Shown: piece by piece, positions 53,246-59,475 of the stretch | How the letters are laid out: every line of letters begins with the position of its first letter | How positions within the stretch are numbered: position 1 is the stretch's first letter | DNA from: a virus | Length of the DNA: 64,000 nt | Reading direction: 5' to 3' (one strand) | IMG/VR virus record: IMGVR_UViG_3300028197_001952 | Location: 13,602-77,601 of that record | Position numbers and translations under genes: made by a program | The notes under the pieces: model-generated | What the model was told of the DNA's origin: nothing | Databases searched by the model: none | What the model saw: only the letters and a program-made list of their open reading frames with translations

Positions 53246-53297
53246 TTCTAATTCTTGTTATCTTACTATAAATATATCTTTGTTGATTTTATGGTTC

Positions 53298-56378: not shown

Positions 56379-56408
56379 AAAAAAACCTCACTTTTTAAGG
56401 TGAGGTTC
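56379..56408 (-). terminator. intrinsic terminator
   Basis: Minus strand AACCTCAC-cttaaaaa-GTGAGGTT followed by a T-tract. Confidence 0.75.
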
Positions 56409-56438
56409 TTTATAATGTACATTCTTAGAAAGTATATA

Positions 56439-56675
56439 TTATGCTTTCTTTTTTAGGATGTGGTATATAACTCCAGCCCCTACTAATCCTAGTAAGCCTT
56501 CGTTACTTAATGAACCTATAATACCCATAATGTTATCCACTACTGATACTTCAGGCCAAAAAGGAATCGCTGCACCTTTGAATAATACTTCTAATACTAC
56601 TCCAAGAGCAATGATACTAATACCGATTTCAGTAAGTGATTTTGCCCAATCACCCATTTTATTTAGAAATTCCAT
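56439..56675 (-). CDS. small membrane protein (2 hydrophobic segments; possibly holin-like)
   Basis: Two hydrophobic stretches and a basic KKKA C-terminus. Confidence 0.55.
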   Translation of the reverse strand: MEFLNKMGDWAKSLTEIGISIIALGVVLEVLFKGAAIPFWPEVSVVDNIMGIIGSLSNEGLLGLVGAGVIYHILKKKA

Positions 56676-56836
56676 ATTGTTGTTCTCCTCTGTTTTTGTT
56701 AGAAATATATAACCTCTTCCTTCTCTAAAACATCGGACATGTCAAGAATAACTATAGTATATATTACAAAAAAAGTTACGATATATATTTTATACCGAAT
56801 TAAAGAAGTGTATTGGGGGTTTATATATTTATGTAT

Positions 56837-56944
56837 AAAAAAACCCCGCCGATTGGAGGGGCATTTTGTACTAACCACTTTGTTATACGATTAGAGATTT
56901 TCGAGGGAATTTATAACCTATTATTAGTATCCTCTATCTTACAA
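56837..56944 (-). ncRNA. candidate structured RNA (three-way junction plus loop-loop pairing) ending in a terminator
   Basis: ORF-free. Pairings UUGUA/UACAA, AGAU/AUCU, GAGG/CCUC, CUAAUC/GGUUAG and loop-loop GUUAUA/UAUAAC; terminator CCCCUCC-AAUC-GGCGGGG-U7. Confidence 0.5.
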
Positions 56945-56970
56945 TAAGTATAATGTAATTAATTGAAAAT

Positions 56971-58674
56971 TTAAATTATTTTCTTTTTTACAATATAATT
57001 ATTAAGTATTAAAGTATCCATCTCACAATTTAAAAATGTTTTAATTGCATCAAGTGGTGTTAGAACCATTGTTTGGTCTTTTAAATTAAAAGAAGTATTG
57101 ATTACCATTGGATATTCATTTATTTCTCTCAATCGTTCAAGTAAATTATACATTCTCCTATGTTGTCTTTTATTAACTGTCTGTATTCGTGCAGAATTAT
57201 CTATATGAGTTATTGCAGGTAAATGTGTTGCGTGTTCTTTTTTTACTTTTACTACCTGATTCATATACGGTACTTTATCTTCATATTCAAAATATGTTGA
57301 AGATGATTGCTCGGATACCATTGGTGCAAAAGGTCTAAACCCTTCTCTTTTTTTAATAACCCTATTCAAACGAGATTTCATTTGAGGATCTCTTGGATTT
57401 GCTAGTATAGAACGATTACCCAATGCTCTTGCACCAAACTCCATTCTACCTTCTACCCAACCAAGAACATTTCCTTCTACAATTTCTTCTGCAACTATAT
57501 CACATATTTGCTCATAAAGTTTTTTTTCAAACCAAACATCTTTATCATATATCTTAAGTGCATTTAGTATATCCTCAGTAGTGAATGATGGTCCTAAGTA
57601 TGGACTTGAGTTATCAACTCTTTGTTTTGATTTACTATAATAGTAATGTAATGCACACCCAATGGATGAACCTGCATCTGATGGAGCTGGTGGAATGTAT
57701 AGGTTTTTGAACTTTGTTCTTTTTAAAATTTTACCATTTGCTGTACCATTATAAGCACAACCTCCACTCAAGCATAAGTTCTCTGATTTTGTTTGTTTAT
57801 ATAATGCATCCAATAATCTAAAAAATAAGAACTCATACATTTGTTGTAAACCTGCTGCAATATCTTTGTGTTTTTGTGTTAGTTCATCTTCAGGTAATCT
57901 ATTTGGTAATTCAAATAGTTCTGATAATTTTTCATTGAACATACTAGTTGTTGAATACTCATACGTAAAGTAATCCATATTTAATTCAAATTTACCATCT
58001 TTGGTAGTGGTATATAGTTTTTTGAATTTTTTTAAATATTTTGATGAATCTCCATATGGAGCTAATCCCATTACTTTATATTCACCTTCATTTGGTTTAA
58101 ATCCCAAAAAGGCAGTAAATGTAGAATACAACATTCCTAAAGAATGTGGAAACTTAATAGAACCTATTTTTTTAATATCATTAGTTGCATATGCAAGTGC
58201 AGTAGTTTCCCACTCTCCTACTCCATCAACAGATAATAAAGCAGCTTCGTTAAATGGAGATGTGTAATAAGAATATGCTAAATGAGATAAATGATGGTCA
58301 CAATAAATTAATTGAGTCTTGCTTCCTCTTAAGCTTTCTAATTGTGATATTGTATCTTCATATACTTTTTTATTTTTAGATATTATTTTTAATCTACTGA
58401 AGAAGTTTGTCCATCCTCCTTTTTTTGTAGATGTTTCAATTCTATCTAATTTTAATTTTGGGTTTTCATAAAAACAAATTGCTTCTAAATCATTAGATGT
58501 AATTTTGAATTCACTAATTAACCAATTAATAGTGTTAATTGGAAAAGATGAATCATGTTTGATTCCTGTAAACCTTTCTTCTTCACATGCGCCTAATACT
58601 CTACCATCCTTTATTAAAGAGGCAGCCGAATCGTGATATCCACAACTTATTCCTAAAATATAACCATTAACCAT
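56971..58674 (-). CDS. O-carbamoyltransferase (NodU/CmcH/TobZ family)
   Basis: YHDSAA, EEERF, HHLSH, DGVGE, EGEYKVMGLAPYG, SGGCAYN, EFGARALGNRSIL and NTSFN. Confidence 0.92.
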   Translation of the reverse strand: MVNGYILGISCGYHDSAASLIKDGRVLGACEEERFTGIKHDSSFPINTINWLISEFKITSNDLEAICFYENPKLKLDRIETSTKKGGWTNFFSRLKIISKNKKVYEDTISQLESLRGSKTQLIYCDHHLSHLAYSYYTSPFNEAALLSVDGVGEWETTALAYATNDIKKIGSIKFPHSLGMLYSTFTAFLGFKPNEGEYKVMGLAPYGDSSKYLKKFKKLYTTTKDGKFELNMDYFTYEYSTTSMFNEKLSELFELPNRLPEDELTQKHKDIAAGLQQMYEFLFFRLLDALYKQTKSENLCLSGGCAYNGTANGKILKRTKFKNLYIPPAPSDAGSSIGCALHYYYSKSKQRVDNSSPYLGPSFTTEDILNALKIYDKDVWFEKKLYEQICDIVAEEIVEGNVLGWVEGRMEFGARALGNRSILANPRDPQMKSRLNRVIKKREGFRPFAPMVSEQSSSTYFEYEDKVPYMNQVVKVKKEHATHLPAITHIDNSARIQTVNKRQHRRMYNLLERLREINEYPMVINTSFNLKDQTMVLTPLDAIKTFLNCEMDTLILNNYIVKKKII

Positions 58675-58695: not shown

Positions 58696-59475
58696 TTACA
58701 AAAAATCATTATCTATATATGGATTCGAATCAACATCGTTGGTATCCTCTTCCTTAGATGACCAGAAATCTTTTTTTCTTGGTTCTCTGAATTCACCATA
58801 CTCGTGATAATCGTTTAACATTTTTTTCTGATGGGTTTTCATTACATTAACCACTTTAGTAATATAGTGTGTTTTACAATCTGTCATTTCTCTTATTAAA
58901 AGATATAAATGTTTTTTGTTAAAGTTTTCTATATACTCACTTCTACGAAATAATTCTAATATAGCATCTGCTATTTGTAAATCTCTTTTCTTAGTAAAAA
59001 TAATATTAAGATTTTTATCCCAATACTTTAACATTATATTTTTAAATTCTTTAAACTCATTATTTTCAGATTCTTCATTAAAATCATTTTCAGGATTCCA
59101 AGTTTCTGGCATTGCTGATAAAAGAGAATTTTGTTTCCATCTTTTATAGTTACCATTGTTTTTTAAAATTAAATGATTCTTTGCTATAATAGTAAAGTAA
59201 GAAAATGCTCTTCCTTTATCTGCTTTAAACATATGTATCTTTTCTACCATAGTAGAAACTACTTCAGTTTGGATATCTTTTTTTGAAACATCAAAATATG
59301 AAAACCTGAAAGTATTAAGAACATTTTCTGCTAGTTTTTCAAATGGAAACTTTATTCGTTCTTCATATATTTTAGAACGAACTACTGAATCGGTTGAGTT
59401 ATTATATTCTATTATTGCTTCTTGAGCAGGAGAACCAAAGTATATCTTTGATTTTTTTCTTCTTGGTTTTGGCAT
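58696..59475 (-). CDS. putative phage late sigma factor (T4 gp55-like)
   Basis: FKADKGRAFSYFTIIAKN resembles the gp55/sigma region 2 F(A/S)YFT.I motif. Confidence 0.6.
   Translation of the reverse strand: MPKPRRKKSKIYFGSPAQEAIIEYNNSTDSVVRSKIYEERIKFPFEKLAENVLNTFRFSYFDVSKKDIQTEVVSTMVEKIHMFKADKGRAFSYFTIIAKNHLILKNNGNYKRWKQNSLLSAMPETWNPENDFNEESENNEFKEFKNIMLKYWDKNLNIIFTKKRDLQIADAILELFRRSEYIENFNKKHLYLLIREMTDCKTHYITKVVNVMKTHQKKMLNDYHEYGEFREPRKKDFWSSKEEDTNDVDSNPYIDNDFL

Follow-up and report, generated by a model that had tools for sequence, protein, structure and literature searches.

Does a stretch of about 108 nt on the minus strand of a marine phage, bordered by a carbamoyltransferase gene and a membrane protein gene, encode a structured RNA held together by a loop-loop contact, or is it something else? 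The original prediction for this interval (positions 56837-56951) was a closing stem around two abutting arms with perfectly complementary loops, preceded by a late-promoter variant and followed by a GC-rich terminator, and it was read either as a late sRNA or as a riboswitch-like attenuator for the membrane protein encoded downstream. To our knowledge, the regulatory RNAs of marine phages, notably those infecting Bacteroidota, are almost unknown.

The locus and its relatives

The window, i.e. the whole stretch of 64,000 nucleotides that was analysed, belongs to an IMG/VR record of 77.6 kb, which represents an uncultured T4-like phage of marine origin, and almost all of its genes lie on the minus strand. 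The genes and elements of the locus are as follows:

58696-59475, minus strand: gene of a 259-aa protein, upstream of the carbamoyltransferase gene
56971-58674, minus strand: NodU/CmcH-type carbamoyltransferase gene, the upstream neighbour of the interval, which is bordered by its stop codon
56943-56952, minus strand: late-promoter variant TATACTTAT(T) (nonamer 56952-56944), which aligns to the late motif ATATTTATA
56935-56940, minus strand: AAGATA, a putative start-region element of late promoters, overlapping AGAU, the 5' strand of arm 1
56895-56940, minus strand: arm 1 (AGAU/AUCU plus GAGG/CCUC, 24-nt loop), which the comparison below indicates to be the remnant of the 3' end of a gene called here gene X
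56871-56894, minus strand: arm 2 hairpin, CUAAUC-GUAUAACAAAGU-GGUUAG, with a 6-bp stem and a conserved 12-nt loop
56863-56870, minus strand: A-rich linker, which joins the hairpin to the terminator and includes the 3' strand of the predicted closing stem (56866-56870)
56837-56862, minus strand: intrinsic terminator, a GC-rich hairpin followed by U7
56439-56675, minus strand: gene of a 78-aa membrane protein, the downstream neighbour of the interval

The nearest cultured relative, found through the 259-aa protein, is Flavobacterium phage immuto (38% identity), which fits a host belonging to the Bacteroidota, probably the host phylum of the present phage. The only cultured-phage relatives of the 259-aa protein occur in immuto and in Microcystis phage Mel-JY01, where they are annotated as hypothetical, and the protein has no Pfam or PHROG match. 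DNA and protein searches of cultured phages with the interval region and the 78-aa protein gave no match.

The relatives to be compared were collected with two kinds of query. Searching with the 78-aa protein, 80 IMG/VR loci were kept out of 191 confirmed contigs, and pattern scans for the hairpin of arm 2 in viral and metagenome collections yielded about 180 further loci, some of which lack the hairpin; the conserved hairpin occurs in about 100 metagenomic contigs. Alignment A1 comprises the 33 distinct sequences with the window-type arrangement, and the divergences reported below are mean pairwise values over 36 window-type sequences. The individual loci are designated by L numbers.

The predicted junction with kissing loops

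The pairings of the predicted fold, all of which are present in the window, are the following:

56944-56940 with 56870-56866, minus strand: closing stem, UUGUA with UACAA
56939-56936 with 56898-56895, minus strand: arm 1 outer stem, AGAU with AUCU
56934-56931 with 56906-56903, minus strand: arm 1 inner stem, GAGG with CCUC
56894-56889 with 56876-56871, minus strand: arm 2 stem, CUAAUC with GGUUAG
56917-56912 with 56887-56882, minus strand: complementary loop segments, GUUAUA with UAUAAC

The existence of every listed pair at its place is the main point in favour of an RNA of about 108 nt, in which the closing stem would surround two arms joined by their loops. The following lines of evidence make such an RNA very improbable. 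First, the RNAfold z-score against shuffled sequences is -0.84 for 56837-56951 with the terminator and +0.68 without it, and the nested fold as claimed has an energy of -6.4 kcal/mol, compared with -9.0 kcal/mol for the minimum free energy structure, which is another fold. In the ensemble, the closing stem has a pair probability of 0.02, the two stems of arm 1 reach 0.06 and 0.13, arm 2 reaches 0.42 and the terminator 1.0. Second, the closing stem, which taken alone has an energy of +1.5 kcal/mol, is paired in 68% of the cells of the 33 distinct relatives, and its inner three pairs are broken in 9-14 of 27-33 sequences, i.e. in about 40-50% of the relatives. Its 5' strand (56940-56944, minus strand) abuts the promoter and is probably upstream of the transcription start, since a start within AAGATA would leave this strand outside the RNA.

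Third, the stems of arm 1 are invariant in alignment A1 and thus show zero covariation. Their nucleotides are the most conserved of arm 1 (divergence of 0.05 vs 0.15 in the loop), which is in favour of the predicted arm, yet the invariant AGAU can be accounted for by the promoter architecture, to which it belongs as part of AAGATA. Fourth, a C to U change in the kissing pairs, tolerated in 9 sequences of A1, does keep a G-U pair, but no kissing pair is changed on both sides in this alignment; four sequence types are disruptive, the pairs being broken by C to A in one sequence type and by U to G in three sequences, and the kissing segment is absent in three sequences. Moreover, a perfect 6-nt Watson-Crick match between the two loops arises in 8.3% of loop shuffles. 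Fifth, the RNAalifold consensus retains arm 2 alone and predicts neither the closing stem nor arm 1, and there are relatives that bear the hairpin of arm 2 with no arm 1, an 11-nt spacer occupying its place. Conservation and covariation, which the original prediction had proposed as a check, speak for arm 2 and do not support the closing stem, arm 1 or the kissing loops as paired elements. What was read as a three-way junction with kissing loops is put down here to chance in an AU-rich sequence, and the caveat attached to it, namely that short AU-rich stems might pair by chance, was borne out for most of the listed structure.

The view that the interval holds no meaningful ORF was upheld. The segment is 54-58 nt long in the relatives, and of 36 sequences no more than 4 keep the 44-aa antisense frame open; this variable length and the breakage of the frame by indels indicate that the interval is non-coding.

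Arm 2 is a conserved hairpin

The comparison of arm 2 was based on 23 distinct 24-nt variants representing all sequence groups. In this set, 94% of the cells are paired, and four of the six pairs display double changes (C-G/U-A, U-A/C-G, A-U/G-C and A-U/G-C), a score that was reached by none of 500 shuffles, while shifted registers of the same sequences are 10-45% paired. The U-G and G-U wobbles are compatible with the minus strand only. In the 12-nt loop, G1, A3 and A8-A10 are invariant and U2 is nearly so. These covariation data indicate that arm 2 is a real conserved RNA element, previously undescribed, which is coupled to a terminator and a late promoter.

A covariance model built on arm 2 found one copy in the 77.6-kb record of the window, one copy in a complete 214-kb relative and no match in Flavobacterium phage immuto. 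The Rfam scan that had been suggested for the interval returned no family: Rfam 15 gave zero matches over the whole window at gathering thresholds, and the best sub-threshold matches of an E-value scan of 56400-57100 were terminator look-alikes only, with E-values of at least 1. The possibility that the hairpin is copied from the host or mimics a host element, such as a CRISPR repeat, was considered for the GUAAUU loop type only, and rejected: this pattern has a single match, probably due to chance, in 185,579 prokaryote genomes.

The terminator and the late promoter

The terminator announced for the 3' end is a genuine intrinsic one by sequence, with a GC-rich stem (56861-56844, -10.2 kcal/mol) and a U-tract; a simple consensus scan had overlooked it because of one internal mismatch. 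In the relatives, GC stems of other sequence take its place, each with a T-run behind it. The A-rich linker varies in both sequence and length (divergence of 0.29), and the hairpin is always found 4-14 nt upstream of the terminator, the sequence of which differs between groups.

The late-motif variant announced for the 5' end was likewise recovered. In the window it is two positions off the consensus, its divergence among the relatives is 0.013, and it is followed by AAGATA, the interval reading ATACTTATT-GT-AAGATA. The consensus ATATTTATA has 12 copies in the window, 11 of which closely precede gene starts on the coding strand, and AAGATA occurs at most 12 nt downstream at 4 of these 11 sites. 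In the relatives, AAGATA follows the late motif in 34% of 151 distinct contexts, vs 0.7% in control flanks. From these frequencies, AAGATA looks like an extended late-promoter or start-site element. On the minus strand of the window, where ATATTTATA is found at 53267, 56363, 58688, 31271 and other positions, AAGATA often lies 2-5 nt after the motif.

The link between promoter and hairpin extends beyond the window-type arrangement. Of 52 contexts that are not of the window type, 46 have a late-type motif in the 110 nt that precede the hairpin, as compared with a chance expectation of about 5% estimated from base composition, an association that comes from a few independent lineages only. The spacers between motif and hairpin cluster at 11, 25, 36-37, 57 and 66-78 nt, and in 13 contexts the spacer is exactly 11 nt with no ORF in between.

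Gene X and the origin of arm 1

In many relatives, the region between the carbamoyltransferase gene and the hairpin is occupied by gene X, which encodes a protein of about 115-125 aa with a signal peptide and matched no Pfam or PHROG family. Its product (e.g. L016 2453-2797 and L045 2409-2783) has a C-terminal coiled coil, and the gene is present or absent among close relatives; sometimes, as in L052, the hairpin has a paralog of the gene on its downstream side. Gene X usually has its stop codon within the 5' arm of the hairpin. A late motif (TATATTTATA or TATACTTATA) and a Shine-Dalgarno site precede the gene, TATACTTATA standing at its promoter position in relatives, and TATACTTAT recurs inside the gene, as Y-T-Y codons, about 70 nt before the hairpin.

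Alignments of the interval with this gene indicate that arm 1 is the remnant of the 3' end of a lost gene X. First, the first 25 nt of the window interval align to the gene X codons R-Y-T-Y-x-x-I-E (p of about 0.002-0.01 vs shuffles). Second, non-coding remnants in two other groups align over their full length to the gene X tails of sister lineages, with scores of 47-67 vs 14.5 +/- 2.3 for the null. Third, direct repeats of 9-11 nt (TATACTTATA[A]) border the deleted part in the loci L016, L026 and L032, the two copies being identical over 10-11 nt in three loci, and what precedes the nonamer in window-type loci is similar to the gene X promoter region (TTCTTAAC...). Fourth, there are further deletion end points, some loci keeping 18 nt of gene X and others only 11 nt from motif to hairpin. 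A deletion between the two copies of the promoter nonamer would lead to the layout of the window. We propose that gene X would have been lost in this manner, thereby leaving the promoter, the tail, the hairpin and the terminator in place, and that the same deletion may have occurred independently in several lineages. If so, the locus offers a worked example of how repeats of a promoter sequence delete cassette genes of T4-like phages while sparing an overlapping non-coding unit. It also carries a caution, namely that short stems and loop complementarities that look designed can arise in AU-rich phage DNA through gene decay.

The internal copy of the motif accompanies the hairpin. It is present in 24 of the 25 gene X homologs that are followed by the hairpin, the lone exception (L224) being provided with another late motif, 11 nt upstream of the hairpin, and it is lacking in 9 of the 10 homologs scored as hairpin-less, the tenth (L142) carrying a divergent hairpin; these counts represent a few independent lineages only. 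The hairpin of L142 is a second, divergent copy located after gene X, with the loop AUAAUCCAAAGA. In intact gene X, Y-T-Y, I-E and the next conserved E form six consecutive scored columns with a single codon each, and this is the sole such run longer than two among the 67 scored codons of the gene.

In one gene X group and its remnants, UAGAGyw and wrCUCUA form a candidate long-range stem of 5-7 bp, which encloses 30-42 nt and stops 5-15 nt short of the hairpin; it shows one compensatory pair in the remnant L185 and one G-U change in the remnant L022. The equivalent in the window, UAGAGG/UCUCUA, would extend into the 5' arm of arm 2 and be in competition with arm 1, and its nucleotides are invariant in window-type sequences. 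The MAFFT alignment of gene X tails and remnants (A3) misaligned the remnants and was left out of the pair counts.

Evolutionary constraint on the interval

The mean pairwise divergences of the different parts of the locus are as follows:

Promoter nonamer: 0.013
Arm 1 stems: 0.05
Arm 1, whole: 0.127
Arm 1 loop: 0.146
Membrane gene, third codon positions: 0.277
Terminator stem: 0.33
Carbamoyltransferase gene, third codon positions: 0.348
Spacer from stop codon to promoter: 0.47

Arm 1 evolves more slowly than the third codon positions of the carbamoyltransferase gene (0.127 vs 0.348, p = 1.6e-9), and this rate indicates that the arm 1 remnant is still under non-coding constraint. These values bear on the idea that the interval is a non-functional fossil, i.e. 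the decaying remnant of a deleted gene, the transcription of which would be inconsequential and of which the terminator alone would matter. Such a fossil would agree with the homology of arm 1 to a coding 3' end, with the lack of a thermodynamic signal and with the absence of the whole unit from some relatives. We nevertheless regard it as improbable, since the promoter and arm 1 lag 3-25-fold behind third codon positions and adjacent spacers in their rate of change, and since arm 2 displays compensatory changes across deep divergence.

The genomic context of the module

The genes that surround the promoter-hairpin-terminator module differ from phage to phage. Upstream, one finds the 259-aa gene, the carbamoyltransferase gene, gene X or other cassettes, and downstream the membrane gene, a 137-aa gene, gene X, a lipoprotein gene or others, which have their own promoters there. 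Cassettes, including gene X, the carbamoyltransferase gene, the membrane protein gene and others, thus come and go around the module, and one contig harbours two modules, with an inserted lipoprotein gene and gene X lying between them. The promoter, the hairpin and the terminator are all lost in L014, L015 and L017, which implies that the unit is dispensable. In L142 (1788-3840), L112 and L092, extra cassettes, encoding a 391-aa lipoprotein, a 308-aa membrane protein and a 141-aa protein, are located between a window-type unit and the membrane gene.

This variety weighs heavily on the second reading of the original prediction, that of a leader or attenuator, possibly a riboswitch, which would govern late read-through into the gene of the 78-aa membrane protein. 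In the window, the unit does lie upstream of the membrane gene, which has no ATATTTATA of its own. However, other genes follow the module in relatives (those of the 137-aa protein and the lipoprotein, gene X and others), and some relatives, e.g. L014, keep the membrane gene and its conserved upstream region with the module absent, which argues that the module is not the leader of that gene. Furthermore, there is no conserved alternative pairing with the terminator, since the pairing of GAGG with CCUC of the terminator arm that had been envisaged is possible in just 7 of 33 relatives. Finally, and as weak evidence, the RNA contigs of the membrane gene in two studies begin within 56722-56731, their ends at 56722 and 56731 lying downstream of the terminator. 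An attenuator of the membrane gene is therefore a most doubtful explanation.

The main rival to the short late unit described below is a cis-acting 3'-end module, in which the hairpin and the terminator would end or stabilise the mRNAs arriving from upstream (those of the carbamoyltransferase gene, of gene X or of the gene before them), the promoter and the gene tail being mere leftovers. In favour of such a module are the constant position of the hairpin 4-14 nt before a strong terminator, the change of upstream neighbour from one relative to another (259-aa gene, carbamoyltransferase gene, gene X or others) and the stop codon of gene X that is often placed inside the hairpin. Against these points, a generic helper of termination would be expected at many terminators, whereas the hairpin is single-copy in the complete 214-kb genome, and one gene X lineage retains the terminator next to a degenerate hairpin. 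In addition, a cis-acting role leaves unexplained both the near-invariant late promoter after the loss of the gene and the exact 11-nt spacing of the motif in the 13 ORF-less contexts. On balance, we consider this explanation rather unlikely.

Expression and candidate targets

Four marine metatranscriptomes yielded contigs that span the membrane gene, the carbamoyltransferase gene and a 140-aa gene. The region 56742-57013 is uncovered by these contigs, which has little weight because such contigs capture short RNAs poorly. As to possible partners, complements of the arm 2 loop with at most two mismatches are not enriched in the window (10 found vs 16 expected), and duplexes with the 5' UTR of the membrane gene were not significant (z of 0 to -2, with inconsistent sites).

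A probable short late transcription unit

Taken with slightly better than even confidence, the interval would be a short, self-contained late transcription unit, which probably produces a small late RNA with arm 2 as its core. The late sRNA that was one of the two original readings is accordingly plausible as a transcript, and the comparative data strengthen it (promoter divergence, AAGATA and the motif upstream of 46 of 52 hairpins); the architecture proposed for that RNA did not stand. We propose that the unit would consist, in this order, of the late-promoter variant TATACTTAT with AAGATA, about 45 nt of gene X tail, arm 2 and the terminator, its functional core being a late promoter that feeds the hairpin and the terminator. 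The predicted RNA would be about 100 nt long, from about 56940 to about 56838, and its exposed loop would most likely operate as a recognition surface. In this scheme we infer the transcription start site, the accumulation of the RNA and its action in trans. What the comparison defines is a testable element, in which a late promoter and a terminator bracket a single-copy hairpin of 24 nt, the loop of which is conserved.

More tentatively, and with less than even confidence, we suggest that the unit could be a single-copy sRNA gene under a phage late promoter, conserved across many uncultured marine T4-like phages (probably infecting Flavobacteriia), which is sometimes nested in the 3' end of a protein gene, with its promoter kept at synonymous sites, and which has repeatedly outlived the deletion of that gene. 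If true, such an sRNA gene would be to phages what the sRNAs derived from mRNA 3' ends are to bacteria. Among these bacterial sRNAs, MicL is a Type I 3'-end-derived sRNA, the promoter of which lies within the coding sequence of cutC (PMC4102768; review, PMC9438474). Similarly to Type I sRNAs, a putative promoter motif is located inside the 3' part of gene X, where the nonamer is kept at synonymous sites in the Y-T-Y codons of 24 of 25 homologs, and the short unit shares the terminator of the mRNA and can stand alone after the loss of the gene. Unlike MicL, the present unit has a phage late motif in place of a promoter for a host sigma factor, its host gene has been repeatedly deleted while the short unit persists, and the phylum infected is probably the Bacteroidota.

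By analogy with another known system, the module can be compared to PeSLs, composite motifs of promoter and terminator through which T4-like phages shuffle their modules (PMC2839356, PMC4122927). Both are elements of T4-like phages that combine a promoter with a stem-loop or terminator at the borders of variable cassettes, and in both a short repeated regulatory sequence is an apparent site of insertion or deletion. However, PeSLs comprise an early promoter and a stem-loop and occur in many copies per genome, in the hyperplastic regions, whereas the present hairpin, with its conserved loop of 12 nt, is single-copy and goes together with a late motif; furthermore, the repeat involved in the deletion is the late-promoter nonamer and not the hairpin. 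The module also resembles intrinsic (Rho-independent) terminators equipped with an accessory hairpin, in that a GC-rich stem with a U-tract has a second hairpin a few nt upstream. Unlike these, the loop is conserved and the stem covaries across phages with unrelated terminator sequences, which suggests a role beyond termination.

Other elements flanking the interval

Just past the terminator, a second hairpin (56792-56820, minus strand; about 1390-1430 in L001) has a degenerate stem in the window; in relatives, it forms perfect 9-12-bp stems of differing sequences, e.g. TTTCACACCCAA...TTGGGTGTGAAA and ACACCTAAT...ATTGGGTGT. Further downstream, a strongly conserved box, AATATATACTATAGTTATT (56747-56765, minus strand), is followed by a short palindrome, GACATGTC (56735-56745), the halves of which covary, being GGACAGTCC or GGATATCC in relatives. 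The box and the palindrome are found upstream of the gene of the 78-aa membrane protein in nearly all relatives, and together they could represent a promoter of a non-late type, accompanied by an operator or a 5' hairpin. The 78-aa protein itself has no Pfam or PHROG match and is 77-97% identical across the 80 contigs kept. Its gene has terminators on both sides, and the RNA contigs that contain it reach a depth of 7-37 in three metatranscriptome studies.
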